A stretch of DNA of 64,000 nucleotides from NCBI GenBank assembly GCA_035221665.1, contig CM069133.1, positions 137,330,001 through 137,394,000 on the forward strand, in the 5' to 3' direction. The notes under the pieces were generated by a model. It was not told where the DNA came from, did not search any database, and saw only the letters and a list, made by a program, of their open reading frames with translations. The position numbers and the translations under genes are program-made. Below, one piece after another: positions 2,037-63,323 of this stretch (the stretch's first letter is position 1; every line of letters starts with the position of its first letter). Origin of the DNA: Okamejei kenojei. Its lineage: Eukaryota.

Positions 2037-2135
2037 GGTCTGAAGAAGGGTCTCGACCCGAAACGTCACCCATTCCTTCTCTCCAGAGATGCTGCCTGTC
2101 CTGCTGAGTTACTCCAGCATTTTGTGTCGACCATT
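2037..2135 (+). mobile_element. Short PLE-derived hammerhead-bearing element
   Basis: Bounded by 12-bp TSD GGCCTTAATAAA (2025-2036 / 2136-2147); core followed by the family tail CCAGAGATGCTGCCTGTCC...GAGTTACTCCAGCATTTTGTGTC. Confidence 0.9.
2040..2067 (+). ncRNA. Minimal type I hammerhead ribozyme core motif
   Basis: CTGAAGA-A-GGGT(CTCG)ACCC-GAAA-CG-TC: conserved CUGAnGA and GAAA boxes, stem II, palindromic ACGU in place of stem III, GUC cleavage triplet; stem I is weak. Confidence 0.75.
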
Positions 2136-2894
2136 GGCCTTAATAAAATTTGGGTGCAGAGATAGGCACTTTTAAAAATGCCTTTATGTTTAAAAATGTA
2201 CTGGATAGTGCTTACAATGTTCCATCGCCATACGTTACACTTGAAATCATGGAATGTAGGTATTTATCTTATTCTAGTAACATCAGAGTTCCGACTTTCT
2301 TTGTGGCTTGAGATAAAGCTGCTTGATTGACTGGGCCCTAATTCTGGCCGGCATTTGATTGCAAATGCAGCTGGTAAGATGTACGTTGTGAAAATTGTGC
2401 ATGGAATTGACATCACAATGCTCTTTTGAACCCAAACCATTAACAGGATGGTGCTGTATTTCAGTTCCTGACCAGATTTTGCAGGTTGCAGCCATTAGCT
2501 GCTGTTTTGTGGAGGGAGTTTGCATGCTTATATGAAAGAAATACTAACTGAGGATTAAGCAGAATTGCCCAAGGATATCCAGGCTCAACTTACACCATTG
2601 GTATATGCTCACATATTGGTTCCAACAGTGGTGGCTGATGTTCTGTGTTTTCAGAGTTTTTTTCGGTTCTTCATTTAGGCCGGAGGCAACAAACCTTATT
2701 TGGACCCTAGCTAACAAAAGCCGAACAATGCAGGGCATTATTACAATCAGCATAGGTTATAGTAAACTTGTTCTATTTTCTACACACTATTGAAAATAGC
2801 ACAACAGTATTGTTGATCACCTGCACCTTTGCACTCTCGACAACAGTTCATGGCCTTACCAACCAGGTGAACATATGTGTTCATCCTAAATTAA

Positions 2895-3198
2895 ATTTAG
2901 TTTTAGTCCAGAGATATGGTGCGGAAACGGGTCCTTCGAGTCCGCGTCGACCAGCGATCCCCGCACATTAACCCTGTCCTGCACACACTAGGGACAATTT
3001 ACATTTGTACCAAGCCAATGAACCTACAAACCCGTACGTCTTTGGAGGGTGGGAGGACGCCGAAGATCTCGGAGAAAACACACGCAGGTCACGGGGAGAA
3101 CGTGCAAACTCCGTACAGACAGCACCCATAGTCGGGATCGAACCCGGGTCTCTGGTGATATAAGGCAGCAACTCTGCCGCTTCACCGCCGTCTGGCCC
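2895..3198 (-). mobile_element. HE1-like tRNA-derived V-SINE
   Basis: Box B (GGGATCGAACCC on +), central V-domain and (CTAAA)n-like tail; matches the copy at 21791-22103. Confidence 0.9.
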
Positions 3199-6100
3199 CT
3201 TTCTACAACTGTAATGGCAAATCATTCACCTATTTAGTTAATTAGTTGATGTCTATCACTGCTCAACGTCATGACTAGACGAGGTAACAAATTACCCATT
3301 CAAACCTAAAAAAAACGAGTGTACTAGTCTTATAGACTGGAGAACGTAACAATGAAGGCTTTGACCCTTTATACGACATGTTAAACCTAAAGAAGCTTCA
3401 GAGCAAAGTTCCTCTGCAGTATTTCAGGGTGGTGCTGTGTGAGGATAAGTTCAAAGTTAAAATAGTTCCCATTTGTATAGTGCTACAGGCTTGCATGAAA
3501 TAGGTTGAGAAATAGATCAACCTTAAAGGAATGACTGTGCTTGTTTAAAGAAGCATGGGCAACAGAATCGAGTCTGCTTTTTTTTTTGAAGACTTTCTTC
3601 CTTATTACACCTGTCAAGCTTGGGTTTCTGCATTTAAACTGGAACCATGAGATCAAGGAGCAAGACTACAACTCTGCGACAGTTTTCACAGAGATTAGTG
3701 AATATGGTTTTCACATAGCTCTTTCCCCAGTTCAAACATATTAAACAAAACTGAAAGTGGACCTGGAGTTTAGCGCCATGTTGGATTCTGTAAGACAGGC
3801 ATTTTGATTAGATCGATATGAGAATTACTCCTTCTCTGTGGTTGGGGGCACTGTCACATCAGAAGTTCATTTGAAATGAATTGGTATTTTCTTTTTGTTC
3901 CATCAATGGCTTAACTCACAAGAACCTGCTTAAAATGGCCACCTTCCTTCACTGTTCAAAGGACTAATTCCCAGCTCACTGTTCACTCACAATAAAACAT
4001 ATTGTTTGACAACTAATTAATTGTGTTAACTTTTCAATGCTTTTGAGCTGCTAGGCACTGATGTAATCCAGGGATCCAGGGGAACATAATAAACATCCGA
4101 AATAGAAGAGTGATTCTCAAAATAACTCTGCCCAATCAAGAATGTTGCAATCAACCAAAAACACAAATTTCTGGCTCTGGAAATATATCTGACAGAAGCC
4201 CTCTCACATGCCATCAGAGTAGTGGCCATTACCAATGTAAACAGTAAACAAGACTCTAGAGGATGGCTGTGACCAGCCTTTTGAATGGAAGCCTGAAACA
4301 ATCTGTAACATATTACAAAAGAGCAAAGGGCATCCTAGAGAGCTAGCATGGAAACACCTTAATGGAAAGAAAATCCCACCTTGATCTTTTAGGGTGCAGC
4401 TCAGTTGAGATTGAGTTAAAGGTAAATTAAAGACACATTGCCTTTCTTTGATCATTTAGTATATTTTTTTGCCTGTGAAATGTTTCTTCCTGTCAGTGGT
4501 GTGTGTTTCTAGGCTTCTATGTTCTCCTGCTACTCTGTCCATCTGGGATTCATCCGTTATTTACCCCACCTAGTCACAGTAGCCATTGTACCAAAAGGAT
4601 GGAATTCTACCTCTTGGGGTTAAGATTTAAAGCAGATTGGAAATATTGAACAGCAGAAAGCTGACAAAAGAAAACCTCCTGATCACTCCACCTTAACTAA
4701 AAGAAAACCTTCAATTAGAGCAAGTATATTTGATTTTTTTGCAAGAATAGATAGAAGAATAGTTGAAGGAGAGAGTTAACCCTTAGGACGAGTTGGAAAT
4801 ATGATTTGGCTTTGCAAACTCGTACAGAAAATAGTTTTGCAATACCATCAGACAAGGAAGTATGTGAATTAATATTATTCAGAAGAATTTATTTGGCTTG
4901 TAATAACTTGAAACCTGGACTCTGTTACCCAATAGTGAATGGGTGCAGCAATTAAAGATAAGGGTGGTGATATCTGTGTGGGTGAGGAATCATGTATAAT
5001 AAAGTAGTTTTAAATACCTTTGGTACAGATACTTCAGACATTCCATAACCAATATTAAATACACTTAGAAGTCCAAATCCTCAAAGCATGTGCCTTTGCA
5101 TGTAAATATATTTATTGTCCTCCACAACCTGAGCAAAATATCTGTTTGTCTCCTGCGCTGCTATAATAGTCATTTGCACCCCAATATCTTTTGGCTTTTT
5201 TGCTCCTCAAGCTATTGAAGGAGAAATTGCGAACTGTTTTGTTTTCCTTGACACATCGTGTATTGTCTGGCGAAAGCAGTTGTCTGACTTTCATTTGGCT
5301 TGCTTCTCCTTGGTGGTTGCCTGCTGCTCCTTGGCACCACAGATCCTGCTGCTGTTAGTCTAGTGACTAGAAGCCAATCTATCTCTCAGCAAGTTGTTTA
5401 TTTTCTGAATACACAGGGAGGAATCCCCGTAAATGAGTAAGTGTTACTTTTCACTTATTTCCCAGCCAGCAGGTGTCCTGAAACACAATTTGCCTTAACT
5501 ACCTCGACATCTGAGATGTGAATGAAGTCTAATCTGTCATCCCCTCTTGTCAGACTTTCTTGAATAGGACTGTACCCAGGTTATTCAGAGGCCTGTGTGC
5601 TTGGAATGCAGCTTTAATTCTTCAAGAACAGGCAGAATGTCTTATTCTACAGTTTGAACGAGTAAGTCTGGTCGCTGCGTGCATTGACACCTGGCAGAAA
5701 GGATGGCATAAGCCATACTGTGTATTAACTGTACAATATTATGTGTAGTATCCGATTGGGTATCATTCTTTGGTTTTATTTGATAAGAAATATTATGTGA
5801 CTAGAATGGAACTGAGCTGTATATAGCTGGACTAAAATTAATTGCCACTATTATTTGAAGCTTAGTCGGAGAGGACCGAGGTTAATATTTGCTGTGGTAT
5901 AAATCACTGTTAAACTTCCTTTTAAAGAAACTAGCATGCTCACTTGTGACCAGCTGTGTGAACAAGCCCTTGTATATCCAGTCACTAGATTAGAATCCAA
6001 CTTGGAATTAAATATTTACTTTCCTTGTTAGCTGCGGCAGTTTTACTTAGAGTAGTGTTTGTCAGAGTAGGTCCAGTTCCCGTTAGTTGCGAAATTGGCA

Positions 6101-6948
6101 ACAACAAATCACAGACTAATTCAGAAAAGCCATAAAGAGGATTTGGAAAGTGGAGTAGAAAGTGAAGCCGGGAAATTGAGTTATAAGTGTCATCTGACTC
6201 TGCAGTACATGATACCAACATTGGATATCAAAGTTTCTTTCATTCTTCAAATGCAGGTATCCTTAACTTTAATCAGCACAACAAGCCTTGCAAATAAAAA
6301 CTCTTAGCTCTGACTTAAGGGACTGAACCTTTAATCCAGCAACTGAGCAGTGTGATATGAGAATTACATCGCATCAAAGATCCTCATCTTGTTAACAGAA
6401 ATATTATTGAAGAAGAAAGGAAGTTTTAACACAGATTTTTCAACAATAATCAACACTTAAGATTGTAGTGGCTGCCACTTGCTTCCTTTCTTCTATTCCA
6501 GAGAAACCAAACTTTTGTTTGAAACCAAACCAGGCTTTTCTCAGCCCTGTGGTCATGATTGACACCAGGGTAAATTTTCAGAGCATGTGTGATCATAACT
6601 AAGACCACTTATTTCCGCCATTCAGCATACGTCCTCTCACCCTCGATCAACTTAATCTAGATAATGTGCATAAAAACTGACTATCCAGTATTCACAGGAC
6701 TATAGTGGTGTTAGACTAGCAGATATTCCACAATGTTACTCATGTTAATACCCCAACTCACTTTTTTATTTAACTTTTTTAAATTGTTATACGGGATATT
6801 GAGAGCAGGAGGTTGAGACTGGTGAGTTTAAAAGGAAAAATAGAACATTCATCCTATCGGAACTGGTTGCCAAACCATCAGGATTTGCAAACAATAAAAT
6901 ATTTCTGAAGACATATAGTAGTCTTACAGTAGTCTTACTCTAGAAATA

Positions 6949-7079
6949 CAGTCTGAAGAAGGGTTTCGGCCCGAAACGCTGCCTATTTCCTTCGCTCCAT
7001 TCATGCTGCCACACCCTCTGAGTTTCTCAAGCACTTGTCTACCTTCGATTTTCCAGCATCTGCAGTTCCTTCTTGAACA
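6949..7079 (+). mobile_element. PLE-derived hammerhead element, long-tail form
   Basis: CTGAAGAAGGGTTTCGGCCCGAAACGCT...CCAGCATCTGCAGTTCCTTCTTGAAC. Confidence 0.85.
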
Positions 7080-7095
7080 AAATATGAGGTTATTG

Positions 7096-7185
7096 TCTGA
7101 CGAAGGGTTTTGACACGAAATGTCAGCCATTCCTTCTCTCCAGAGATGCTGCCTGACGCACTGAGTTACTCCAGCATTTGGTGTC
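7096..7185 (+). mobile_element. PLE-derived hammerhead element, short-tail form
   Basis: 11-bp TSD TGAGGTTATTG (7085-7095 / 7186-7196); starts TCTGACGAAGGGTTTTGACACGAAATGTC. Confidence 0.85.
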
Positions 7186-7239
7186 TGAGGTTATTGAAGT
7201 TTTACTGCACTGTTGAACAGACATCCTCCTTCTAACATT

Positions 7240-7750
7240 TGTATATATGTTCATCCAAATCTCTGTTGCATGTATCCTTTTGCACCACACCCTGATCCCC
7301 AACGCTCCTGAACATGTAGGAAGGAACTGCAGATGCTGGTTTAAACCGAATATAGACACAAAGAGCTGGAGTAACTCAGTGGGTCAGACAGCATCTCTGG
7401 AGAAAAGGAATAAGTGACGTTTCGGGTCAAGACCCTTCTGAACGTATATGTTGCTCCGGCCCTCATCCCACCTTATTTCTGCCCATTCATCCTATAGCTT
7501 TTCATGATATCTTTATTCCTCCAGCTATAATCCCTGGATGTTATTGCTCCAGTATTGATAGTTGTGCCTTTAACTGGTAAGAGACTAAACTCTAAAATTC
7601 CTTTCCTAAACCTGTCAAGTTGTCTAATTTTCTTCTTTTAAAATATTCTGTAATATCTACTACACCTTGGTTAGCGGTTTGTGGCAGTTAGCGATTTTTG
7701 TTTACCCATACTCCTGTGAGGTAGTTTGCTATGTTGAAGATATTTCACTA
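7240..7750 (+). mobile_element. Degenerate L2-type LINE 3' region interrupted by a PLE element
   Basis: Similar to the reverse complement of 1375-1700 (AAATTCCTTTCCTAAACC...ACTCCTGTGAGG). Confidence 0.45.
7316..7438 (-). mobile_element. PLE-derived hammerhead element, long-tail form
   Basis: GAAGGAACTGCAGATGCTGG...GACGTTTCGGGTCAAGACCCTTC is the reverse complement of the family consensus. Confidence 0.85.
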
Positions 7751-8064
7751 TTATTGCCATTGCAATTTTATTTATAGTTGTTCCCTACTCTTCAGGCATC
7801 AATTAAGTGTCACGTCTTTCAGTTTCTTTGATTCAGCGTCACCCTGACTAAGTCCCCAGAAAATAGCCTTCTATTGTAATGACTACTCGTAGCTTGTTGG
7901 TGTTTTCACGTCTCAAAGCTCTCTACTTTGCCGTCACTCATTATTGCTCCCATTGAGCATGCAAGACAAATCTGTCCACATCAGTTGCCCAAACAATGCA
8001 ACCTATTCAACTCACCAATGATAAGGGAGAAGGGCCATGGAAGAGAACAAGAGTGTGTCGGAGT

Positions 8065-8115
8065 GAGTGTGTGTGCTTGTGCTGTTTCTGCATACGCTGT
8101 GTGTGTGTGTGCGCA
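8065..8115. repeat. Imperfect (TG)n microsatellite
   Basis: GTGTGTGTG runs. Confidence 0.7.
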
Positions 8116-9620: not shown

Positions 9621-9621
9621 C

Positions 9622-9906: not shown

Positions 9907-11088
9907 TTTGTATGATGGACTGTATGTGTTCACAACACTGCAATTTCTTGTGGTCGTGGGCACCACAGTTCCCATACTAAGCTCAGTGAGAGTCAAATGT
10001 GTGGAGCACAAGGAGGCTATTTGCAAATAACAGGATGAATGCCCAATCTCTGAAACTACCCACACACTCCCTAGTTCAGCAACACCTTACCCCTTTGTGG
10101 CAGAATGTGTGGGTACCACATTTTATTCATCAGCCACCACGGAAATGTAGGAATGGATTGGAAGGAAATCATCCTTGACCCTGAGCAACTGCAGAAGAAG
10201 AAGGAAGTGGTAGCAGTGAATCAACTCTTTTTTTACAACTTACCTGATTTTTAACTATCATTTTACACTATTGTGCTCTATCCTATTATTTGGCAATTAA
10301 CTGAAACACTGCGGCTTGTCGATTTTGTGAAGCTTTTGCTGATTCACAATGTATAAGTTCCGACGGCTCCTCTTTAAGCTGTTGAAAAATTGCGTTTTTT
10401 AAAAAGACAAGAATTGATGTGACTTGAAAATATGCCAACCAGCTACTTTAACATACAAGAAAAAGCTGGCTTGCAAACAAGAGACCTGACAACAATGCAC
10501 CTATTGAAGGTTTTCAGTTTCTGCTTCTAATCTGTTACATCTGTACATTTCTACACTTCCTATAAAGTTCTAGAGCTGTAAACAGATCATGTTACAATAT
10601 ATCTCACAGAATGATCTTTGGAGAATGACAGCCAATATACTTCTGAAAAATGGCCAGTATAGTTTTAGGTAAGTACATCTCTGATATACTTTGCTTTAAA
10701 GTTCTTTGGAAGAGTTTATCAACTCTTTGGATTAACAGTAAACTGAGCCTTTGCAGCCGGTTTGTTGTTGAGAGTAGTGCGTACTCTGCTATTTTAATGT
10801 CCAAACTATTTCCTTTCATATGACTAAATATAAAACTCTACTTTGCTTGTCTGTGTGGGTTTGTAGTGTACTTTGCTCTTTTCTGGAGGTTAGTGTCAGG
10901 ACTGGCTTTTCTCAGAGTTTGACACGGGATGGCTGGATGCCAAAATTCTTTTGAACGCGATTGTGCCATTTTTAGGATGGTGTTCAGTAATTCTGATATT
11001 TGGAAACTGAATAACAAACCTATTTGACAGTCACGTTAATATTCACATTAATACCAAATTCACATTAATGTCAAGTTATTAAGGTTTA

Positions 11089-11617
11089 GCACTTCAACTC
11101 CCCCTCCCATTCCGTATCCGACCTCTCGGTCCTGGGCCTCCTTCACGGCCAGAGTGAGCAACACCGCAAGTTGGAGGAACAGCACCTCATATTCTGCTTG
11201 GGGAGTCTGCATCCTCTGGGCTTGAACATTGAATTTTCTCAATTCTGTTAACCCTTGCTGTCTCCTCCCCTTCCCACATCTCCCTCAGCCCTCGGGCCCT
11301 GGCATTCCCTCTCTCTCTATCTCCCTCCCCCACCCTAGTCACACTAGCTTCTCATTTTCACACCACAAACAGCTTACAATGGCTTGTTCCCTTTATCATC
11401 GATACTTTTTTGCATATCTTTCATTCATTGTTCTTTATCTCTCCACATCACCGTCTATATCTCTCGTTTCCCTGATCCCTGACCAGTCAGAAGAAGGGTC
11501 TCGACCCGAAACGTCGCCTATCTCCTTCGCTCCTTAGATGCTGCTGCACCCGCTGAGTTTCTCCAGCCTTTTGTGTACCCTCGATTCTCCAGCATCTGCA
11601 GTTCCTTCTTTAACACA
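11089..11617 (+). mobile_element. 5'-truncated Penelope-like element (GIY-YIG C-terminus, 3'UTR and hammerhead repeat)
   Basis: 8-bp TSD AAGGTTTA (11081-11088 / 11618-11625); ends in the hammerhead core (11488-11515, CAGAAGA variant) and the long tail. Confidence 0.9.
11090..11251 (+). pseudogene. PLE GIY-YIG endonuclease C-terminal remnant
   Basis: Manual translation HFNSPSHSVSDLSVLGLLHGQSEQHRKLEEQHLIFCLGSLHPLGLNIEFSQFC*; HF...E...I..L....P.GLN is typical of PLE GIY-YIG. Confidence 0.85.
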
Positions 11618-19014: not shown

Positions 19015-19029
19015 TAAGGAACTTACAAA

Positions 19030-19223
19030 GAAGGACACAAAGTGCTGGAGTAATCCAGTGAGTCGGGCAGTATCACCGTAGAACATGGATAGGTGATGTT
19101 TCGGGTCGGGACCATTCTCCAGACTGCTATTTCCGGTTGGATCATTCTTCAGACTGACGTTTCAGGTTGGAACACTACTTCAGTCTGCTGACCCACTGAG
19201 TTACTCCAGAATGTTGTGTCCTC
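19030..19223. mobile_element. Inverted PLE element pair containing three tandem hammerhead cores (minus strand)
   Basis: Minus-strand tail, three ~30-bp units (19095-19125, 19126-19155, 19156-19187), then plus-strand tail CTGACCCACTGAGTTACTCCAG. Confidence 0.8.
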
Positions 19224-25560: not shown

Positions 25561-25637
25561 TCCTCGGCATGTCAGCCAGCATCTGTACAGACATACCCAG
25601 GGTTAATGTTTTAGATTGATGACCTTTCAACAGGACT
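25561..25637 (-). mobile_element. Old PLE hammerhead repeat (degenerate)
   Basis: Minus strand CTGTTGAAAGGTCATCAATCTAAAACATTAACC. Confidence 0.5.
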
Positions 25638-26862: not shown

Positions 26863-27621
26863 GACACATCTGCCTCAATTGTGATGTCCATTTCTTTTCT
26901 TATGAATAGTTTTTCCTAGTCTAAGAACCCTTGGTGAACCAGTGAATAAAAGAAAGTTAAGTGGACACTGAAATATATTTTATTTCTGCCAAAAGCTGAC
27001 CTGAGTTTGATTTATTTCAGGAGCGCATGATGGCAAAGTCTTACCTGCCCCTTCACGCATGAAATTACTTTTTTGGTTTACGCAGAGCTTTTGTTATCTA
27101 CCTAAACCAAACTTTAGGTAGTTTTTTTAACTGTGAAGGTAATAAAACATATATTTTTCTATTATTCACTGACAGGCCAGTAGTGGTGAGGGAATATTCT
27201 GCGCTTGTACTGACTGTTCTGTGGCCCACCAAGGCAGGTGTTTTACTTGAGGCAGCTACCTGAAATGACTTGCATGCTTTCACTAATCGTGGCCAGACAG
27301 CTGTATTTGACAAACTTTTAAGCACAAGTGTTTGAAGCTGAACAAAACATTTAGGTCTTCTGGTATTTTTATATGTTGCTTGCATGGTGGGAGAGCAGTT
27401 TTCAAAAGGAGTAAGTTTACATTGATTAATGCTTGCCCCATTTTTCTTCTGCAGTGTCCAATTGGAGTGCTGGCATGAATGGGGCTTGTAAGTTATTTTG
27501 CCTCTCACGATCATTCTTAGAACCAACAATCCAAGGATCCACCTTTTATCTTGTCAGATGATCCCAATGATAGGAGTATTGATGTATGTCAGTTTGGATC
27601 AAATTGTATTTACTCTTTGAG

Positions 27622-27863
27622 TACACAAAAGGACACGAACTGTTGGAGTAACTCAGTGGGTCAGGCAGCATCCATGGAGAACTTGGATAAATGACGTTTC
27701 GGGTTGTGACCATTCTTCAGACCCTTTTTCAGTCTGAACAAGAGTCTCAATTCAAGACGTCACCTATCCATGTTTTCCAGAGATGCTGCCTGACCCGCTG
27801 AGTTACTCCAGCACTTTGTGTCCGTTTGTATATTAACCAGCATCTGCAGTTCTTTATTTCTAC
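27622..27863. mobile_element. Head-to-head inverted pair of PLE hammerhead elements
   Basis: Minus copy ends CTTCAGAC; plus copy starts CAGTCTGAAC; ~100-bp imperfect palindrome. Confidence 0.85.
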
Positions 27864-29843
27864 TCTTTCAGTAAATTGCTGGCCCCTGCTGCAGGGATCT
27901 AACATAAACCAATGATTAATAGAGGTTAGTTAAGTGAATACTGTGGAATATTTGATATTGTTACTGTTCTATTATCAGACCCATGTCAAATAGAAACACT
28001 AAATAACTTACAAACTTGGAAATTTGGAAGGGAGAAGATGCAAAGAAAGATATTTGAGTATGATAAGCGAATTATAGATTTACTAATGAAGAAAGCATGT
28101 GTGAGCAACACAGTGGCAGGAAAAGGCAGTGCATGAAAGACCAGATAAATGGCAGATAAAGAAAAGGAGAGTAGAAAGATGGCACAAATCATTTTTAGGA
28201 AAATTGATGGCTATTTTTATTCTTGCCATGGACACTGGAGTAGAAAGTCAGTTCATCATCACACACCGTGTGCATAACTTTGTGACATGCTCCCGCCATG
28301 ATAAAGCAATGTGCCTTCTCAAGGAATTAACATGGGTGCGAATGGCCCCATAGTCATTCCTGACTGTGATGCCTCGTATCTGGCTTTTCTCTTCATTGGT
28401 CGATCGAGATAACATTCCCGCAGGCTGGGAGAAAGTTTTTGAATATGCTCTGAACATGTGTTGCAGTTTCAGTTTTGGTTTCTTGTCTTGTCAGTATCTT
28501 TTGTCAGAGCTGGCAGGCTAAAAAGCTGGCAAAAGCCTCCAGTAATTAGGAGAGGAGTTTAAGATCATATTGGAAATGAAGGGTTGAATTTTTCTGGAGG
28601 CTGCTACATCACACAAATGCTCCCCTTTCTTGTTCTGACTCCTTTGATTTCATCCATGATTTTATTTATGTGTACTTGAAAAAGTAAAAACATTTGGAGG
28701 ATAAGGAGTCTGCAAACAAACCCTTCAGCTGTTCCCGTTGATCCAAACCTCAAAATTACTGTTTTGATAACAGATTCAGCGCTGAACTCCTAACATAACT
28801 GGCCACGAATGAAATCACCCGTGAAATGAGAATTTTGAAAAGCAGCACAATGTCTGCATTCATTTGTCCATTGGGCATTAGTATAATTTTCCTAATTTAT
28901 CTGAAATATTTCGTTCTGTTCTGTGTTGGTTCCTCATTTGGGGGGAGGTTGGAATCAATCCCCTTTTAACTGCTTGAGATGTATGCTTAATAGTATTGTT
29001 ATTTGTGTAGATAATATGCTGTTTCTAATGTACAGGAGCAGTACATTGTGGAATGGTGAAGCACTCTTGTACTAATATATTTTCACCATTGTTAGGAACA
29101 AAAGTGAATGCTGCTGAGGCAGCAATGAGGAACCAATTATTTGAAAAATTGTCAAGGCGGGGCATGGTCAAAGGTCATAAAGGGATGAGTAAACGTGGGC
29201 AGTGTTAAACATTACAGCTATTGGACCTAAATCCACAGCAGTGGGTGCATGATGCTAATTATTTTAATTTGTGAGTGTTAGTGTAACATCAGTGTTTTTA
29301 TATAAACACTGAGGATTCCGTGCAATGGTAATATGCATTTCTGGTGTGTGTGTTGAAGCAGAAACTGCTTAATGTTTGCTCTTGTGGTTTATTTACCTAC
29401 ATTCCTAAATGTGTAATTGCCATACAATACTGACCATATTCAAAAATAATACTTAAACTAAGTCTCCTGACATGTGCAATTACTCTCATTCTTTGATTCA
29501 ACTTAAAATATTTTTTCTGTCCTTTTGAAAGCAGAAGCTGAACAGTATTATAGATTCATCTATGTCACCCCTCCCACATTTTTAGTCTGCATTGTGTGTG
29601 TTGAATGGCAATCTTATCAAAGGAGACATCAGAATTGAGCTTAATTCTGCTCTCATCATCTCCATGGAGCAGCATTTATCATGTAATACAGATCGGTCGT
29701 GGGATACTCCAGTCCCAGGATGCTGAGGCAGAATGAACTGACCCATTGCTTCTCTAATTGAGATTAACTGGCTCCTCCTGGACAGGGAATTGAATCGCGA
29801 TAGGCATTTACTTTAGTGCAGTGAGCCATTTGGGTTTGTTATG

Positions 29844-30038
29844 AGTAAGAAGGAACTGCGGATGCTGGTTTAAACCAAAGGTAGACACAAAAAGCTGGAG
29901 TAACTCAGCGGGGCAGGCAGCATCTCTTGAGGAAAAGGAATGGGTATCTTTTCTGGTCTCGACCCGAAACGTCACCCATTCCTTCTCCCCAGAGATGCTG
30001 CCTGTCCCACTGAGTTACTCCAGCTTTCTGTGTCTATC
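29844..30038. mobile_element. Head-to-head inverted PLE pair within one TSD
   Basis: 14-bp TSD TTGGGTTYGTTATG (29830-29843 / 30039-30052). Confidence 0.88.
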
Positions 30039-30810
30039 TTGGGTTCGTTATGTGCAATGCATGGCAATGAGCCTAATAGAAAATGCTTCTAGTTTCACTG
30101 TTTTCTTGAGAAAGCTGAATGCATTTAAGTGGCCTCTTTCACGGGTTCAGGCTATATTGCTGGCACCAATTTAACGACTGCTGGTGAAACACTAACTGTC
30201 TTGGGTTGCACATGTTAAATAAATGGCCAGTTCAGGTTACCTTCCTCACCTCTTGGATTTATTGCCTGATACTTGGGTATGGGCCAGATGGAGCTCAAAG
30301 CAATGATTGGAATTCCTAGCATTCTACTACTGAAGAGTAGTTGAGGGTAATTAGTTTGCTGATAACCTACACTATGAAATAGTTATTTTATTTGAGTTTA
30401 TTTATTATCACAGGCATAGGTCATTTGGTCCATAATGTTGAGAGATGAAGCATTATAATTCTATATTCTCATTTTATTGCGTAATTACATTACGATGCAT
30501 TCTCATAAGAAAGTCATGGTTGTATCTTGTGCAATGGAATAAAATTTGTGACTGGTTTTGAGAGTGAGAAAAATTCAAATATTTTTGCATACCTTTTGGT
30601 GATTCAACATTGGTTGGTTTGGGGCGAGTTGATTTGCTCCTCTGTAAATAAGCAAGTGACGCTTCCCGTGGATACGTGGAGAGGAAACTCAGCGATGAGG
30701 TAGACTGAGAGAGTCACGGGCATTTTCAATACTTTATTTCCGACTTTAAGTTAACATTTCTAAAAAAAAAACACTGAAAATGCTGGTTGTGCGTGCCCTC
30801 CATTTTGTTT

Positions 30811-34386: not shown

Positions 34387-35806
34387 CAAAACTGCAGCAA
34401 GTAAGAATTTCATTGTTCCGGTCCCAATGCCTAAGACAGCGAGACCTGGGTCATGGTAACACATCTTGACTGGATTTGTACTGATGTGAACAAAATCCTT
34501 GGTGACTCTATAACTGCACTTGATATTCCCTGATAAGTTTACATGAGGGCTAAAGATTTAAGACCGAGATCAGGGTCCGAGGGTGATAGGACATAAAGTA
34601 CAGGTTCCTCATCAACTGGAAGTTTAGTTTGTTAATCACTGAAAATACTAAGTGGGAGAATACTTGCATGAAAGCAAGAGGATTAAATCTGACTAGAAAT
34701 AAGAATAAGAATGCTGTGAATATGAATATTGTTTTTGGCTATTTTAAACCATATGCAAATATGGTTTTACAGAACCAGCCTTCTGCCTGATGGAAACGAT
34801 TCATCAGTATGCAGACACACAATCCATCAAGTGTTCCATATACATGCATCTCTATGAGATATTATGTGGATGCAATAATTGGATTACATGAATACAAATA
34901 CATAGAATTCAACAAGATTACTGGCATCCTTAATTAACCCACCGTTAATGGGGATTGCAATAGATAAAGAAATAATGTCATGCATAGAACTCATAAAAAT
35001 ATGATTGTTGCAATCATATATCTGAAGAATCATGTGTTCATAACTACAGGTAGGCAAAAGGTCATACACCTTTGAACACAGAGGAAAAATTGTTATTGAT
35101 ATTGGCGTGTACCCACGGAAATAATATTTTATAAAAGACTACATTAACTGTTACCCTGAGTGACAAGTGAAGTGTATTGCTAAACCTAGAAAAATACAGA
35201 GCCAAAAATATAACAAGAAAATGTTATATTAAAAAAAAATGGCTTTCTCAGTCATGTGAGTATGCCATCATCAATCCTTTAATGGGATGTTCTGAGATTC
35301 AGTATGGCTTTTGAGAAGAATATTGAATACTTGGCCAGGAGAATCAAATATCAGTCCTGTTCTTAATTAACTTTAGATCACTCAGTTTTCTTCAGAGAGT
35401 TTGACCTGGCTGAATTGTTGGGGTGGATGTGATATGGTGAATGGCATGTTTTGGGCTTGGTTGTGATTGAAGTTAATTTCTTGCACTGCCTGAGGTCGAA
35501 CAAGAAGCTGTGTTGATATGTTAAATTAAGATTTATTTGTAATCTGGCTGAAGAGTTAGGATGAATGCTGAGGCTGACAGAGGAGGGAAATGAAGATGAT
35601 AGAAATGGCAGCAGAATTTATAATTTTAATTGAAAATAACTTGCATTTTTACTGTAGTCTCACGAGAAGTTGCCATAGTACCATTCCTCTTTTAAACTGG
35701 AAAGCATTGTTTTCTAATCCGAATGTGTAAAGTAAGATTGATAGTGCCTAGAAATTTTAATGGACCTTTAAGACCTTAGGAGCAACGAACATGGATTTGC
35801 ACATGT

Positions 35807-36009
35807 GTAGGAAGGAACTGCAGATGCTGATTTATACAGAAAATAGACACAAAATGTTGGAGCAACTTAGTGGGTTAGGCAGCATCTCTGAAGAAGAGGA
35901 ATGGGTGACATTTCTGGTTGGAACCCTTCAGTCTGAAGGAGGGTTTCAACCCGAAACGTCGCATATGCCTGACCCACTGAGTTATTCCAGGATTTCCTGT
36001 CTATCTTGG
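35807..36009. mobile_element. Head-to-head inverted PLE pair within one TSD
   Basis: 14-bp TSD GGATTTGCACATGT (35793-35806 / 36010-36023); inversion at CCCTTCAG|TCTGAAGG. Confidence 0.88.
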
Positions 36010-36602: not shown

Positions 36603-36717
36603 AGGTCCATTTTGGTCCACCGTCCCCCAGCAATGCTTTAAATGTTTTGGCGAAGAATTGATGTCATCCTACGATCCTGACATGGAAGTTGTGTCCAAGA
36701 ACAACTCAGTATCCACA

Positions 36718-36886
36718 GGTTAGACATAAAATGCAGGAGCAACTCAGCGGGACAGGCAGCATCTCTGGAGAGAAGGAATGGGTGAGGTGTCGGTTCAAGA
36801 CCCTTCTTCAGACTGTCCCGCAGAGTTACTCCAGCATTTTGTGTCTACCTTTGGTTTAAGCCAGGTTCTGCAGTGCCTTCCTACAC
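36718..36886. mobile_element. Head-to-head inverted PLE pair within one TSD
   Basis: 11-bp TSD CAGTATCCACA (36707-36717 / 36887-36897); inversion right after CTTCTTCAGACT. Confidence 0.88.
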
Positions 36887-45218: not shown

Positions 45219-45317
45219 GGACATGCTGAATCTTCTGAGATGCCGAAGAAAGTAAATGCGCTGATGTGCTTTCTAGATCACGTCCAATTTGTAAGGGACC
45301 AGGTTAAATTGGTGACG

Positions 45318-45860
45318 ATAGACACAAAAAGCTGGAGTTACTCAGCGAGTCAGGCAGCATCTCTGGAAAGACTCTTTTTCAGACCGGTTAGGGAAAAGGG
45401 AAACGAGAGATATAGACGATTAAATGGAGAGATAAAGAACAATGAATAAAAGATATGCAAAAAAGTAACGATGGTAAAGGAAACGGGTCTTCTTTGTTAG
45501 CTGTTTCTAGGGTGAAAACCAGAAGCTAGTGTGATTTGGGTTGGGGAGGGATAGAGGGAAAGGGAATGCCAGGGCTACCTGAAGTGAGAGAAACCAATAT
45601 TCATACCACTGGGCTGTAAGCGGCCCAAGCGAAATATGAGATGCTGTTCCTCCAATCTGCGTGTTGCCTCACTCTGACAGTGGAGGAGTCTTCTGACAGA
45701 AAGGTCTATGTGGGAATGGGTGGGAGAATTAAAGTGTCTGGCAACTGGGAGATCAGGTAGGTTCAGGCTGGCTGAGCGAAGGTGTTCTGCGAAACGATCG
45801 CCCAGTCTGCGTTTGGTCTCGTCGATGTATAAGAGTCCACATCTTGAACAACGGATACAG
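45318..45860 (-). mobile_element. 5'-truncated Penelope-like element
   Basis: GIY-YIG ORF end, 3'UTR homologous to 11250-11490, terminal repeat with a partly deleted hammerhead. Confidence 0.9.
45575..45859 (-). pseudogene. PLE GIY-YIG endonuclease domain remnant (open frame, 94 aa)
   Basis: CIRCSRCGLLYIDETKRRLGDRFAEHLRSASLNLPDLPVARHFNSPTHSHIDLSVRRLLHCQSEATRRLEEQHLIFRLGRLQPSGMNIGFSHFR*; CxxC + YIG(D)ET + R..EH motifs. Confidence 0.9.
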
Positions 45861-46306
45861 ATGTGGATGCTGAGGAACTTTTTTTAAATAATATTTTTAT
45901 TAGAAGTAATCATTCCTAACAACAGTATAATAACTTTTCAAATACACAACCAACTTATTTCAATAAGTATACGGATATTACGAATAATTCTTATAAACTT
46001 CTATTTTTTAGAAAATAGAAAAAAGAAAAGAATAGATTTTAATCAATAAGAATAGTGAATAAAAAATAATTTTGATTATATAGAGAGAGAGAGAAAGAGA
46101 AATGAAAGAGAAATATATATATATATTAAAAAAAAGATTATAGTATACATCTTAATAGTGAATAACACAATTTCAAATAACAATATCAATAGAGACATGT
46201 ATACAAATTTTTAAAAAAAAGGAATTATTTTCATCTAATCTTGCCTGGTACTCATTGAGTTGTGATGCCAAGAACAGCTACCCCTTCAAATATTCTGTAT
46301 ATGGAG

Positions 46307-46434
46307 TCTGAAGAAGGGTCTCGACCCGAAACGTCGCCTATCTCCTTCGCTCCTTAGATGCTGCTGCACCGCTGAGTTTCTTCCAGCTTTTTGTGTACCC
46401 TCGATTCTCCAGCATCTGCAGTTTCTTCGTTAAC
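46307..46434 (+). mobile_element. PLE-derived hammerhead element inserted in L1
   Basis: 15-bp TSD ATTCTGTATATGGAG (46292-46306 / 46435-46449); near-identical to 11487-11616. Confidence 0.92.
46308..46335 (+). ncRNA. Minimal type I hammerhead ribozyme core motif
   Basis: CTGAAGA-A-GGGTCTCGACCC-GAAAC-GTC intact. Confidence 0.75.
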
Positions 46435-46810
46435 ATTCTGTATATGGAGATCATATCTGTTCAAAGAGTTCGTATTTGTCCATTAGGACAAATCTGATTC
46501 TTTCCAAATGCAACGTCTCCAACATTTCCACTGTCCACATTGTAATTGTGGGGGATAATGTCCCCTTCCAAAATTTAAATATTAATTTTTTCCCTATTAT
46601 CAAACAGTAATCCAAGAAATTTCTTTGGTTTACTGTTAATATTTAATTTGAATCCGGAACTCCTAATATTATTAACTTTGGATCTGGGTCCAGTTTAATT
46701 TTAAGAACTTCAGAGATAACTCTAAAGATTTCTGTCCAATAATAATTGAGTTTTATACATGTTACAAAACTATGCGTTAAGTTAACTTTCAAGTTCTTAA
46801 GTTCTTAAAA

Positions 46811-49539: not shown

Positions 49540-49730
49540 ACCACCTTTCCTTGATCATCGTTATTTTTTGATACCCTTCATTCATTTGTTGTATATCTGT
49601 TTATACCACCGTCTATATCTTCCCTTTCCCCTGACTCTCAGTCCGAAGAAGGATCTCGACCTGAAACGTCACCTATTCTCTCCAGAGATGCTGCTTGCCA
49701 GCTGAGTTACTCCAGCGTTTTGTGTCAATC
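49540..49730 (+). mobile_element. PLE 3'UTR plus hammerhead repeat
   Basis: UTR homologous to 11385-11490; CCGAAGAAGGATCTCGACCTGAAACGTC. Confidence 0.85.
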
Positions 49731-56261: not shown

Positions 56262-56385
56262 ATAGTAGGTACTGGAAATCTGAAATAAAAAGAAAGTGCA
56301 GGATTTACTCAGTGGGTCAGGCGATGTATGAAGCGAGAGAAACAGTTAATGTTTCAGGTTGATGATCTTTCATCAGTACTGGAAA
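56262..56385 (-). mobile_element. Old PLE repeat with a canonical CUGAUGA hammerhead
   Basis: Minus strand CAGTA-CTGATGA-A-AGATCATCAACCT-GAAAC-ATT-AACTG; a degenerate GIY-YIG-like stretch lies at about 56490-56560 on +. Confidence 0.65.
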
Positions 56386-57215: not shown

Positions 57216-57305
57216 CTAGACCAGACCTCCACACGGGAGGCCTGGTCCCCCAAAGCAACTCGTTCCCCCAACGCAATATTCTACGACTCACCCATAGCCC
57301 AACTG
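57216..57305 (-). mobile_element. Helitron 3' fragment nested in CR1
   Basis: A|CTAGACC, then hairpin CCTCC-ACACG-GGAGG; CAATATTCTACGACTCACCCATAGCCC matches the reverse complement of 20275-20310. Confidence 0.7.
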
Positions 57306-59206
57306 TCGTGTTTGAAGGTAGACAAAGCTCCAGGGCCTGATCAGATATATCCGAGGACATTGTGGGAAACTACAGAGGAAATTGCGGGAGCCCTGGTAGA
57401 AATGTACTAGTCTTCCTTAAATACAGGAGAGGTTCCGGAAGACTGGAGGTGGCAAATGTTTTTCCTCTTTTCAAGAAGGGCGGCAGGGAAAATGATGGGA
57501 ACTGTAGGCCGGTGAGCGTAACATCTGTAGTTGGTAAGTTGCTGGAGAGCATTTTGAGGGATAGGATATACAGACATTTGTATGGGCAAGGGCTGATTAG
57601 GGACAGTCAGCATGGTTTTGTACGTTGAAGGTCATATCTCACAAATCTGATTGATTTTTTTTGAAGATGTGACCAAAAAGGTGGGTGAGGGCAGAGCTGT
57701 AGATGTTGTGTACATGGATTTCTGTAAGCTGTTCGACAAGGTTCTGCATGGTAGGCTGCCCTGGAAGGTTAGATCCCTTGGGATCCAAGGAGAGATAGCT
57801 GAATGGATAGCAAATTTGCTCTATGGAAGGAAGCGGAAGGTGATGGTGGAAGGTTGCTTCTCGGACTGGAGGCCTGTGACTAGTGGTGTGCCTCAGGGTT
57901 TGGTGCTGGGCCCGTTACTGTTTGTCACCTACATCAATGATTTGGCTGAGAACTTACAGGGCAAGATTAGCAAGTTTGCTGATGATACAAAAGTTAGAGG
58001 TTTTGCAGGTAGTGAAGATGGTTGTGAATGATTGCAGCAGGATCTGGATCGATTGGTCAAGTGGGCGGAGGGATGGTTGATGGAATTTATTACAGAGACG
58101 TGTGAGGTGTTGCATTATGGGACAACGAAAAAAGGGTAGGGTCAAAACATGTAAATGGTAGGCCTCTAGGTAGTGTTGTAGAGCAGAGGGATCTAGAAGT
58201 ACAGGTGCACGGTTCCTTGAAGGTCGAGTCGCAGGTAGTTAAGGTGGTCAAAAAGGCTTTTGAAACTTTGACCTTCATCAGTCAGAGTATTGAGTATAGA
58301 ATTTGGGAGGTCATGTTGCAGTTGTATAAGACGCTGGTGAGAGTGCATTTAGAATATTGTGTTCAGTTCTGGGCACCATGTTATAGGAAAGATATTGTCA
58401 AGCTTGAAAGGGTTCAGAAAAGATTTAAGAGAATGTTGCCAGGACTAGAGGGTGTGAGCTATAGAGTGAGGTTGAGTAGGCTGGGTCTCTTTTCCATGGA
58501 GCGCAGGAGAATGAGGGGAGATCTTACAGAGATATACAGTCATGAGGAATAGTTTGGGGAGATGTACAGAGTCTTTTGCCCAGAGTAGAGGAATCGAGGA
58601 CCAGAGGATATAGGTTCAAGGTGAAGGGGAAAAGATTTAATGGAAATCCGAGGGGTAACTTTTTCACACAAAGGGTGGTGGGTGTATGGAACAAGCTGCC
58701 AGAGGAGGTAGTTGAGGCTGGGACTATCGCATTGTTTAAGAAACAGTTAGACAGGTACATAGATAGGACAAGTTGGGAGGGACATGGACCAAGCGCAGGC
58801 AAGTGGGACAAGTGTAACTGGGACATTGTTGGTGTGACAAGTAGGTGTGATGTCGTGCGAGCAGAATTTAAAGAGAGGTTTGATAAAAAACACTGGAGTA
58901 ATCATTTCCTGAGACTGAGGTTCTGAACACAGTGGCTGAGTGAACATGACTTCAAACATCAAAGCCTCTGCATATTGTATAGACTAAAAATAAAATATGG
59001 CCAGGATTCAACTGGATGCTAAGCTGGTGCATTGCAAATGTGTTCTCTGCTAATAGGAACTGAAATATTAGTTTGATCCAGCAGAAGAGCTAAAGGGTTT
59101 TTTTTTTTACTTAATGTTGGATAAGTTGTAGAAAGTATTGCAATGGCTAATAGCCGAGGAGGTGTGAAGAGCTACTATGTACTGGGCAAGCTTTCTGTTG
59201 CCTGTC

Positions 59207-59550
59207 CGTCCTGATGTAGGGTCTTGGCCCAAAACATCAACTCACCCATTATGCCTCCACAGAATGCATCTTGACCTGCATACTTCTCATATTCATGCTT
59301 GTTCCAGCATTCTGTTTTTGTTGACGAGCTCGGTGTCCATGTTCACGACAGAGCTGATCTCCAGACTGTGGTGTGGCAGGAGAATTTGCTTGATGCAGCA
59401 AAGGAACAATAAATAAAACTGCTGGAGAACCTCGGTGGATCAGGCAGCATCCGTGAAAGGAAATGGGCGGGTTCTGTTGTTGGTCGACACCCTTGCTCTA
59501 GCAGTTTGTCTTTTTGCTCAAGGTTCTAGCATCTGCAGTCTCTTGTGTCC
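59207..59550. mobile_element. Older PLE repeats (a plus copy, then an inverted pair)
   Basis: CTGATGTAGGGTCTTGGCCCAAAACATC; GCTGGAGAACCTCGGTGGATCAGGCAGCATC; CTAGCATCTGCAGTCTCTTGTGTC. Confidence 0.65.
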
Positions 59551-60663
59551 GTAGAGGAGGAGCTTCTTTGGTTCGTTACTCTGTGGAACCATAAGGGGAC
59601 AATGTCAAAGTAATGGACATCGGGGGCGTGTGGTGTAGTCACTCTGTCAAACAGTAGAAGAGGTTGTAGAGGAAGGGGATACAGTTCAGCTACACCTTGC
59701 CTGTGCGCAATATAATAATACATTTATACTTCATTTTTCCCACGAACACATAAAAAACTGGGATATCAGATGAGTCTACTGAAACCCTTTGAGCATGATA
59801 AGAATCTTTCAATATGCATCTGATAAAGAAAGTTTAAACACTTTCAGTTCCGAGGCAAAGCACTGTGCACAAAACTGTAATCTTCCTTGTCTTACAATAG
59901 CCATTCAGCAGTATCAGTGTCTACGGCAGGAAAAGTGTCAGATTTTGCATTTGGTGCCAACATGCTTTATAAACATCAGCACAATTTGGCACTTAATAGG
60001 ATTACAGTGTTGAATTGTTTTGAGGTAGAATTCATATGGCGGTGTTAAGATGTCTATTATTTTTTAAGTTAGAGCTGTGTCAGTTTTGCATGCTTTCTCT
60101 TATTATAATGACACACTCGCAATGACCCTGAACTCCTTGGGTATCACCGTAGCAAATTGAAGGCCAGGATCCCGAATGGTGAATGGGAAATCACACAAAG
60201 TAATATGATTCACTCTGCTTTGTCACAATTCTGCGCCCTTCACCACTTCTGACATAAACGTTATAGTACTTCCAACAATTCAGTTGTGAATTTTTTGACA
60301 AAAAAAATTGCAGTTAATTTATCTTCATTTATTTTTCTGCTCGGCCATGCAAATAATTAAGAAGACAAGGGAGACGTACAGCAAATCATCGTCCTTTCAT
60401 TAACTTCTTGTTTTTGATGAGAGAGACAAGTTTTCATTTTTCGAACTGATACACTGGCAAATCAAATTTCACTACACCAATTGGTGTATGTGATAATAAA
60501 TGTCCTTTATAAATGAAGCAAATACATTTTGAGTTGTATCTTCTCAGTGCTTGATAAACAAGGCGAACAATTCACTGTATGATTTGTATAAAAGGTGGTT
60601 AGAACGAAGCTTTAGATTCTGTTGTGAGTTGCATTCAAATTCACAAAAACACAACCAGTTATT

Positions 60664-60704
60664 CCGCCTGTCCCACTGAGTTACTCCAGCTTTTTGTGTC
60701 TATC
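60664..60704 (+). mobile_element. PLE tail fragment
   Basis: GCCTGTCCCACTGAGTTACTCCAGCTTTTTGTGTCTATC (a similar fragment lies at 33246-33277). Confidence 0.8.
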
Positions 60705-60854
60705 ACCAATTAGTTATTATTGCAAATCAACTAAAAAACGCAGGATGCACAGTAAATCAGAATTACTCTGCAGAATGACTGATTTGAAAAGTGCTCAAAT
60801 ACCAATTGTAACTACATCAGGAAATCAGAGCAATTTCTTCAATACAGGCCTTCT

Positions 60855-61165
60855 GCGCCCGCACCTCCAGACTCGGGAACAGCTTCATTCCCAGAGCTAT
60901 AGCGGCTCTGAACGGGCCCTGCTGAGTGCCCCCCACCCCATGGACTGTCTCCCCCGGTCACGTCGCACAGACACATCTGCACTTTAGTCTGTGTTGGTTT
61001 TGACTGTTTTACTGTTCTAATGTTCTTTTCACAAACCTTGTTCTCGGGGTATCTAAACCTAAATGTTATTAGTCGTTTAAGTTATGACATCGGATGGAAG
61101 TTGCAAACCAAATCTCGTTGCACTTATGTGTAATGACAATAAAAGATATTATTATTATTATTATT
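60855..61165 (+). mobile_element. Rex1/Babar-like LINE 3' end
   Basis: RTSRLGNSFIPRAIAALN-coding end, AATGACAATAAA and (ATT)n tail. Confidence 0.75.
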
Positions 61166-61858
61166 TAAACTCAACAATATGTAGGATAAATTCAGGCACA
61201 AAACTGATGAAAAATACCAATTTCCTACTGTGGTTTATCTGGAACCTTGTTCTATGAACGTTCCTCAGCTCGGCTGTAATCGTAGCTCATTGTCTCCGAC
61301 AGATGCACAACTCCTAACATTACAGATTATCCTTGCGCACTATTTACTAAGCCCCATTGAGTGTAGAATAGTGTTTGTGTGTTCTGGCTGATTTCACCAG
61401 ACGGAGCTGGGTTTTATCACTGAAGGAGCTTCAGTAAATACTGGTGGCAGTTCTGTCACAAAATAGTACAGTAAATGTGAAGCCTCTGGAAATCTATAGG
61501 TCTGTTTTAACAGTAAGGGTTACATTAAAATTGTACTGGCTATCCCAGTAGGAATCTCCATTTTGACAGGAATGTTTAACCCAAGGCACATGGATGGGAA
61601 GTCATGCGCTTGTAAAATTATTACAGTCTGTAAATATATGTTATATGTATCATCCACTCTGATATTGTATGTGGGGAGTCAAGACCAAATCTCAAGTCAA
61701 ATAGTTTATAACAGATTAGTTGGAAAGCGAAAGGAAGGGGATGAGGGAATCTGAATCTGAATGAGGTTGCAGGAAGGCTGGATCAAGAAGAGCAAAGGGA
61801 AAAAAGCATGGAAAATGGGGATGGATGTGAGGAAGGAAGAAAGAAAGAGATGAAGGCT

Positions 61859-61901
61859 AAGTGTTAAAGAAGGAACTGCAGATGCTGGAGAATCGAGGGT
61901 T
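61859..61901 (-). mobile_element. 43-bp PLE tail-only insertion
   Basis: 14-bp TSD AAGAGATGAAGGCT (61845-61858 / 61902-61915); insert is the reverse complement of 11577-11616. Confidence 0.88.
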
Positions 61902-63112
61902 AAGAGATGAAGGCTGGTATGGGCAGTGGATAGAACACTGGAACGATAGGGATAAGGGGAATGTGAATAGTGAGCAGGAAGAAAGGAAAGTGTAAAGGGT
62001 GGGTAATGAATGATTTCAGCTGGATAGTGGCAGTGATGCAGTAGAAAATTACCACACTCTTATTGCAGATATTCACTCTATCCTATCCATCTCTTCCCCA
62101 CACTGCAGCTTAAAATTAATCAGGGATAGGAATAAATGAGAATATTGGGCTCAGGTAAGGTTTAATTTAATGACAGTTGGGTTGGCGTTGGGCGGAATTT
62201 AATTTTACGACTGAAGAGACGTCCATTGCAACATTGCTCCAACCTTGAGCTCCCTTTGCCTAGCCCAAGTAGTTGTCCATATCTTCCTATTTAAGCAACT
62301 GATAGGAAGCTGCAAGGAAGAGTGGAGTCTCCCATCTATCACAGTTACTGAGGCATCTCCAGACCATTCAACGAAAGCTAGCATTAATCTTGAAGTCAAC
62401 TATTTCCAAACCCTCCCTCCATGTCATCCTCTGCTTATAAGGCCTTGCCACTGCCTGTTATTGGTTCACTGCCTCTAGCCTATATGCCTGATAGTCCCTT
62501 TGTGCTGCTGTGAAGGCATCCATACTTATTTAATAATTATGCCTGCAAACTGCAACTAAATAAATTTGCAATAATATCCAATTAAATGCAACTTAAAGAA
62601 CATTTGTGTAATAATATGTCTTTAGTATTAATGAAGACTCCTTGTTCCTGTTAATGCTCACTAGGACATTCTTGAATGTAGCAGCATGCTTTTGAACAAT
62701 CATTTAATTCCTGATGTGCTTCACAAATCTATAATTGGTTTAAAGAGGTAATAATTACAGTGCTATTTTTCCTTGAAAAGTAGTCTCCATTTTATGGTTA
62801 TTATTGATAGTTTGCAAAGGAAAAAATGGCACTTCTCCAGACTACATAAAATTCAGATGGGGGAGCTAACATTCATCAAACGAGGTCTGACAACTTAAGC
62901 CAGAGTGGGGGTGGGGTGGCCCTGTCTTTACATGGGTATGCGTGTGTATGCACGTATTAGGAGAACGTATCCTTTTGCACCGTTTAAGTGATCTTTACTG
63001 TGGTTTGTGGGAGTTCTGCTGATTAGAAATGAAAGCAACTAAAAGGATTAATGAGGTCTGATTTTCACGGCAATGGAAAAAGCAGACACAAAGCGCAATT
63101 GAGTTAAAGTAA

Positions 63113-63243
63113 AGAGCTGGTCCCACTTGGGTGTCATTTACCCAACATCATTTATGCGTCACGACGCACGGGTCGTGAGGCGCATGTGATACGCACGCAT
63201 GGCGCGTGGTGAGGCGCAATGACGCCCAAGTGGGACAGGCCCT
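63113..63243. mobile_element. Small PIF/Harbinger-type MITE
   Basis: TAA|AGAGCTGGTCCCACTTGGGTGTCATT ... AATGACGCCCAAGTGGGACAGGCCCT|TTA; CpG-rich interior. Confidence 0.8.
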
Positions 63244-63244
63244 T

Positions 63245-63323
63245 TAGACACAAAAAGTTGGAGTAACTCAGCTGGACTGGCAGCGTCTCGGAGGAGGAGG
63301 AATGGGTGCGGTTTTGGGTCAAG
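63245..63323 (-). mobile_element. PLE-derived element
   Basis: TAGACACAAAAAGTTGGAGTAACTCAGC...GTTTTGGGTCAAGAC. Confidence 0.8.

Follow-up and report, generated by a model that had tools for sequence, protein, structure and literature searches.

The 64,000-nucleotide stretch of the Okamejei kenojei genome considered here (the window; GenBank assembly GCA_035221665.1, contig CM069133.1, forward-strand positions 137,330,001 to 137,394,000) is strewn with short repeats that carry all or part of a hammerhead ribozyme motif followed by a conserved tail. The question is what these repeats are and how they were formed. A first-pass annotation, made from the letters alone, regarded them as a short interspersed element (SINE)- or retrozyme-like by-product family of a Penelope-like element (PLE) that seeds self-cleavage sites in host pre-mRNA. 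The repeat is the hammerhead-plus-tail module of a PLE encoding a reverse transcriptase (RT) and a GIY-YIG endonuclease, the same in kind as the terminal repeat of that element. The copies are truncated PLE insertions, a known kind of feature, and their sharp 5′ edge is the testable part. The explanation we favor, with a probability of roughly 60%, is that they are short insertions resulting from an internal RT start on uncut RNA, followed by run-off just upstream of the hammerhead.

A BLAST search with natural copies as queries gave 35 copies or fragments in the window and none with the reversed-sequence control, in line with the approximately 30 copies counted earlier. Three of the 35 pass an intact-core test (2040, 46308 and 27720) and 18 lack a complete core. 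A 28-nt hammerhead pattern has seven window matches at three or fewer mismatches, against 0.00 expected; an Rfam scan of the window returned no hammerhead family at E ≤ 1. The target-site duplications (TSDs) reported for the copies at 2037, 7096 and 46307 are exact, with lengths of 12, 11 and 15 bp. The copies in the window, with short ones called stubs, are as follows.

2037 to 2135, plus strand: short stub with tail type A and an intact core from 2040; 12-bp TSD at 2025-2036 and 2136-2147.
6950 to 7087, plus strand: short stub with tail type C and the long 3′ end (about +135).
7096 to 7185, plus strand: short stub of type A with damaged palindrome and stem II; 11-bp TSD at 7085-7095 and 7186-7196.
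11089 to 11617, plus strand: 5′-truncated PLE with the endonuclease C-terminus (11090-11248), a pyrimidine-rich spacer and a type B tail; 8-bp TSD at 11081 and 11618.
27621 to 27855, both orientations: head-to-head stub pair; 8-bp direct repeat at 27611 and 27861.
29842 to 30040, both orientations: head-to-head stub pair, source of an Rfam MIR1507 match.
35804 to 36007, both orientations: head-to-head pair plus an additional partial core; 14-bp TSD at 35793 and 36010.
36723 to 36886, both orientations: head-to-head pair; 11-bp TSD at 36707 and 36887.
45317 to 45862, minus strand: 5′-truncated PLE with a GIY-YIG-type domain (45581-45859), spacer and tail; most of the core deleted.
46307 to 46434, plus strand: short stub with tail type B, an intact core from 46308 and the long 3′ end; 15-bp TSD at 46292-46306 and 46435-46449.
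49640 to 49726, plus strand: type A copy that extends about 97 nt upstream into PLE spacer.
56267 to 56379, minus strand: divergent hammerhead-tail type (E), with a second piece at 25602-25636 on the minus strand.
1209 to 63325, both strands: other dispersed stubs and tail fragments (35 matches in all).

The census of copies is based on a 1.54-Mb sample of the 2.76-Gb genome, comprising the window, 8 neighbouring bins, 80 intronic bins and 60 evenly placed bins. Loci numbered with an L are sampled genomic loci. The sample holds 660 repeat matches, and the 232 found in the 60 evenly placed 10-kb bins extrapolate to about 1.07 million copies (bootstrap 0.87-1.27 million), which bears out the very high copy number that had been proposed. 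The exact intact 28-mer occurs 52,743 times in the genome, 27,125 times preceded by CAGT, and 19 intact cores in 600 kb extrapolate to about 87,000. Only 30 sampled copies reach the endonuclease C-terminus and 3-4 reach the RT.

The origin of the module follows from the longer copies. A 753-residue frame in locus L067 contains RT motifs, a CX4CX2C linker and a C-terminal YIG motif; its Pfam RVT_1 match (E 4.5e-6) is just under the family cut-off, and the window endonuclease fragment by itself gave no Pfam match. The protein has 1650 homologs, some with PF01541, and its named homologs at 61-71% identity are from cartilaginous fishes. A first look at the genome gave 127,270 candidates for the endonuclease fragment and 16,968 for the RT piece. 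Compared with the long PLE reading frame, the window fragments at 11090-11248 (plus strand, 94%) and 45581-45859 (minus strand, 71%) both terminate in the repeat, as had been noted earlier. Their ribozyme cores fared less well, with one base changed in the first (hammerhead at 11488) and most of the core lost in the second. At most of 20 endonuclease loci, a pyrimidine-rich spacer lies downstream of the stop codon and leads into the same hammerhead and tail. Among long young copies, similarity is 93-99%. The PLE origin is further established by the full-length copy L071, which has a hammerhead in both terminal repeats, 4003 bp apart, and whose 5′ module extends past the end of the tail (+130) as far as an ATG, +163 from the core start (positions are counted from the first C of CUGA, taken as 0). 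This layout, together with the endonuclease loci, indicates that the repeat has two roles, as the 3′ terminus of PLE copies in the genome and as the 5′ leader of PLE RNA; the repeat unit is wholly PLE-derived. The linker, the single character used, may place the element near Neptune and Nematis, for which a CX2-5CXXC linker between RT and endonuclease has been described (PMC8557442). At loci L022 and L233 stubs are inserted right at the start of the PLE's own reading frame, which suggests self-targeting near the junction of tail and reading frame.

The ends of the copies are far from random. In the sample, 3′ ends peak at +88/89 and at +130. Among 602 copies with a tail body, 300 have their 5′ end inside the module and 295 extend to the core start; the other 7 lie at bin edges and were left out. 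The 5′ ends inside the module are spread at 3-5 per nt, whereas 226 of the 295 core-reaching copies stop within about −6 to +2, at some 25 per nt, and 69 read on into the spacer. When inverted and tandem copies are removed, 119 of 188 still stop at the core start. The earlier label of by-product is a fair one because the truncation is not random. At the predicted hammerhead cut site, before +28, these 602 copies show no 5′-end peak (2.9 per nt, against 4.6 per nt in the surrounding positions). Just upstream of the core, short copies keep T at −1 (0.81), G at −2 (0.68), A at −3 (0.52) and C at −4 (0.35), the last being kept at 0.91 in spacer-bearing copies. At least five dissimilar pyrimidine-rich spacer types all end in YCAGTC, which fits the initiator consensus YYANWYY. 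Read depth falls 4-5-fold at the 5′ edge of the hammerhead in contigs from three runs, two of them probably of DNA and one of uncertain kind.

An extra G at 5′ junctions is a sign of an RT copying a cap. Of the short copies that match AGT but not CAGT, 11 of 19 have G as the next base (5.2 expected, p = 0.005, uncorrected and with several cells tested). An untemplated G outside the TSD is present in two of seven TSD-flanked GAGT copies, and an extra base in none of four AAGT copies. These figures are suggestive only of a cap-derived G.

In view of the above, a mechanism can be considered in which the RT would start internally, about 90 or about 130 nt into uncut RNA, to give the two 3′ ends. 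The two peaks are read as RT start sites because PAc, a Poseidon element of Anolis, has two internal RT start sites that define its tail; in that system both target strands are nicked and extended (PMC11167929). The enzyme would then run off the RNA 5′ end, leaving strong-stop-like stubs, and the 5′ edge would correspond to a transcription start at the initiator-like YCAGTC. Head-to-head pairs could arise by priming on both nicked strands. Once inserted, copies decay neutrally. The ribozyme is predicted to adopt mostly inactive folds, and its benefit would go to the master element and not to the stubs. A more specific proposal, for which we judge the chances to be even, is that the stubs form a fossil record of PLE strong-stop cDNA. 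In this version the enzyme would attach close to the 5′ end of a capped, uncut mRNA and begin synthesis internally; it would then run off at the cap, which it would now and then copy as an extra G, and the product would be inserted. Longer copies would arise only through read-through or from tandem or circular templates. At 19024-19189 of the window (minus strand), and at L132 and L162, the first ~30 nt of the core are directly reiterated before a stub, which suggests repeated engagement of the template at the RNA 5′ end.

Several points weigh against run-off from uncut RNA. The 5′ edge is broad over several bases, with A at −3 kept in only about half of the short copies. It was read from DNA copies and assembled contigs only, and the short class may include copies with spacers that are absent from the reference library. 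The exact genome-wide counts of the base before AGT do not have G on top (G 2143, A 2449, T 1214); they are ambiguous because two composite repeats, which hold 12 of 30 sampled A loci, inflate the A counts. Of 103 short copies, no more than 21 have a clear TSD. Complete arms are not in excess in head-to-head pairs, 34 of which have no complete arm (34.3 expected). Finally, in the Penelope element of Drosophila virilis transcription starts upstream and an intron ends at the hammerhead (PMC4209133, PMC2377424).

This last arrangement fits a reading in which the CAG before the core is a 3′ splice site, so that the edge reflects a spliced template. All spacers are pyrimidine-rich and end in YCAG, and bases −2 to −4 of short copies resemble an exon end. 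In Penelope, the intron terminates on the 5′ side of helix I (PMC4209133). The search for traces of splicing was less favorable. One candidate spliced junction has a single genomic match, matches of the upstream flanks of 132 short copies to the PLE are all scattered and reveal no common donor, and no GT-AG joint occurs among the joints listed from contigs of RNA runs, which are weak data. In TSD-flanked copies the duplication abuts the edge, leaving no room for an upstream exon. We therefore regard a spliced template as decidedly improbable.

Another possibility is that the copies are PLE stubs made on a longer RNA, their 5′ edge marking a point of stalling or resolution caused by a folded ribozyme, a bound protein or the TCAG-n-CTGA palindrome. 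The fact that about a quarter of the core-reaching copies (69/295) continue into the spacer would agree with this, as would the position of the edge at the first base of the structured motif, the centering of many inverted junctions on this small palindrome, and the head-to-head pairs without an excess of complete arms. However, an RT moving 3′ to 5′ would meet the 3′ side of the structure first, and yet the stop is at the far 5′ side. Stem I has only 2 bp and its predicted pairing is near zero, and the excess of G in short copies is not predicted by a stall. This makes a stall site unlikely, although it is the strongest of the alternatives.

The inverted copies are a prominent part of the family. 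The sample contains 114 head-to-head against 5 tail-to-tail pairs, and 228 of the 660 matches lie in head-to-head pairs, 34 of which (of 114) have an exact flanking repeat of at least 8 bp. Fold-back from a complete cDNA was rejected as their source on account of the missing excess of complete arms. One pair gave the Rfam match to MIR1507 at 29904-30015 (32 bits, below the gathering threshold of 73). A microRNA identity was rejected, the match being the hairpin of the stub pair at 29842-30040, which does resemble a microRNA precursor hairpin. With about one third of the copies paired, the genome may contain well over 100,000 such hairpins, a possible input for small-RNA or editing pathways.

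Insertion with TSDs is as expected for mobilization by the PLE enzyme, which agrees with the first-pass annotation. Its SINE- or retrozyme-like reading, taken to mean that the short unit forms an independent, non-autonomous family with master copies of its own, moved in trans by the PLE, has some attractive aspects. The short copies have defined ends and their own TSDs (21 of 103, compared with 0.8% when pairings are shuffled), tail-bearing copies outnumber endonuclease-bearing copies by about 20 to 1 (660 vs 30), and a 2026 preprint derives animal retrozymes from the pseudo-long terminal repeats (pLTRs) of PLEs (bioRxiv 10.64898/2026.07.22.740005). Nevertheless, the short copies constitute neither a separate lineage nor a separate age class. 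For 236 copies the nearest neighbor was of the same class at a frequency of 0.377, compared with 0.341 ± 0.031 for shuffled labels (p = 0.13), and nearest-neighbor distances are equal for short and spacer-bearing copies (0.103 vs 0.108). Divergence is likewise equal between the classes, both in type A (0.102 vs 0.106) and in type B (0.028 vs 0.026). Each of the four tail types includes copies of all classes, whether short, inverted or spacer-bearing. The PLE spacer is present in 8 of the 30 closest relatives of the copy at 2037. Four alignment columns differed between short and spacer-bearing copies (p < 0.01 in 440 tests) but were rejected as lineage markers because three fall at the beginning of the core, where the classes are not detected equally well, and the fourth is a CpG.

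Tandem units are also rare: a direct tandem partner is present upstream in 17 of 334 core-complete sampled copies, a same-strand intact neighbor lies within 1 kb in 6 of 66 intact copies, and the tandem arrays of the window do not contain the hammerhead-tail unit; a few arrays may still exist in other parts of the genome. For a Pol III promoter head of structural-RNA origin, as in SINEs, the analysis covered an Rfam scan, in which no family matched the repeat. An RNA that was cut and circularized would start at +28, where no peak exists; the position of the 5′ ends just upstream of the motif argues against a separate self-cutting mobile family. An independent family is thus already disfavored, and we consider it very unlikely.

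The layout of the ribozyme was correctly described. The PLE master sequence has a minimal type I core, with CUGANGA…GAAA, a UH cleavage site, stem II, a palindromic stem III (ACGU) and the extra A. An intact core is found in 66 of 660 copies (~10%). Stem I has 2 bp in the element and at most 2 bp in 57 of the 66 intact copies; the other 9 reach at least 3 bp by way of their flanks. Core positions outside CpGs have diverged at about the pace of the tail (type A, 0.075 vs 0.091, p = 0.06), and G12 is lost in the manner of a CpG (0.28). Folding predictions pair the core with the tail and give stems I and II at most 5% pairing. The predicted partner of the core's 5′ strand, in all of types A, B and C, is a conserved CCUUC in the tail (window 2040-2085 and 46308-46350), which makes this pairing a candidate off-switch that protein binding might release. 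Since the core is common to all tail types, the ribozyme of the master may matter to the PLE. The type E copy at 56267-56379 has a different stem II, and the hammerhead at 56376 can form a 4-bp stem I beyond one mismatch; it may therefore derive from an older PLE with a more canonical ribozyme.

The sheer number of exact 28-mers and intact cores could be taken to mean that, in cells, host pre-mRNA is cut by intact stubs at a rate that has consequences. A few inverted copies lengthen stem I to 4-6 bp, and the PAc ribozyme does cleave in the presence of its protein (PMC11167929). The evidence from the copies points the other way. The intronic bins lie between same-strand exon matches of Sushi or Laminin G genes, with orientation deduced from 11 exon series. 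In this set of few genes and 42 intact copies no strand bias was found, the sense to antisense ratio being 190:192 overall and 22:20 for intact copies (181:188 and 21:19 in a repeat analysis). Cleavage within introns may be tolerated by splicing. The tail-like decay of the core and of G12 as a CpG, the 2-bp stem I with its low predicted pairing, and the scarcity of same-strand intact neighbors all argue against activity, and published minimal hammerheads were inactive as monomers and weak as dimers (PMC4209133). Cleavage of host pre-mRNA by stubs is unsupported, and of all the proposals considered it has the smallest chance of being right. A Pfam search of 145 of the 287 non-repeat frames of the window gave no match at all, and hence no sign of a host exon.

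A comparison with known systems places the repeats among endonuclease-positive PLEs. These share a single RT and GIY-YIG reading frame, a hammerhead in the terminal repeat, steep 5′ truncation and long TSDs, and their insertions consist of a pLTR, an optional 30-40 bp tail and an adjacent inverted, 5′-truncated copy, with the tail often on one arm of the head-to-head structure (PMC8557442, PMC3846280). The 3′ ends near +90 and +130 correspond to such an optional tail. The difference is that most core-complete copies here stop at one narrow site and not randomly, and that there are about a million of them. Dispersed minimal PLE hammerheads have the same type I layout, extra base after A9, G10.1-C11.1 pair and palindromic stem III. 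Cervera and de la Peña interpreted such single motifs in 2014 as probably truncated PLEs, with no cleavage as monomers and low cleavage as dimers. The 2-bp stem I is shared with D. virilis, the usual minimal hammerhead having 4-5 bp, and the at least 52,743 exact copies compare with ~4,000 in coelacanth and ~9,000 in Xenopus (all PMC4209133).

In PAc, as here, two fixed 3′ ends lie 30-40 nt apart downstream of the hammerhead and a cut RNA is not indicated as template. The PAc enzyme copies mainly uncut RNA, and the ribozyme needs protein in order to cut (Frangieh et al. 2024, PMC11167929). The PAc reading frame starts inside the ribozyme, unlike the ATG at +163 here, and the accessible part of that paper describes neither short run-off copies nor a fixed 5′ edge. 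Non-LTR retrozymes resemble the stubs in being non-coding, pLTR-related and equipped with a type I hammerhead, with monomers dispersed on chromosomes, but they form tandem units of mostly 150-450 bp that give rise to circles (PMC7229834; bioRxiv 10.64898/2026.07.22.740005). The present copies are dispersed monomers of 90-130 bp or inverted pairs with no lineage of their own. The preprint sampled one cartilaginous fish, and its supplements may list related families. The family may also already be named in Repbase or Dfam. A literature search, with most subscription papers and Repbase outside its coverage, did not find this family or a fixed 5′ edge at a hammerhead.

Some stubs have been carried along by other repeats. 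At L262, L268, L269, L271, L275, L276, L277 and L287 (about −1500 to +227) a stub that has a short inverted arm and TSD-like flanks of its own is a passenger in a larger repeat of at least 1.7 kb, which is 88-98% alike, contains an internal tandem unit of ~107 bp and was amplified as a whole. At L258, L259, L263 and L285 (about −430 to +250) a head-to-head stub pair is contained in an element of ~680 bp that is bounded by terminal inverted repeats. This element is probably a DNA transposon of the non-autonomous kind, which we presume to be hAT-like.

The role of PLE hammerheads and the origin of tandem and inverted PLE insertions are open questions in the field. With two fixed 3′ ends and one fixed 5′ edge, this genome offers a very large natural sample in which the question of the template is directly testable. 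If the stubs do record strong-stop cDNA, about a million junctions would map the start of PLE transcription, ribozyme cleavage would not be used to make the PLE template, and the single minimal hammerheads that litter animal genomes would be explained. In genomes of this kind, counting ribozymes by their motif (over 50,000 exact matches in this one) mostly tallies dead retroelement stubs and not functional ribozymes or a new SINE.

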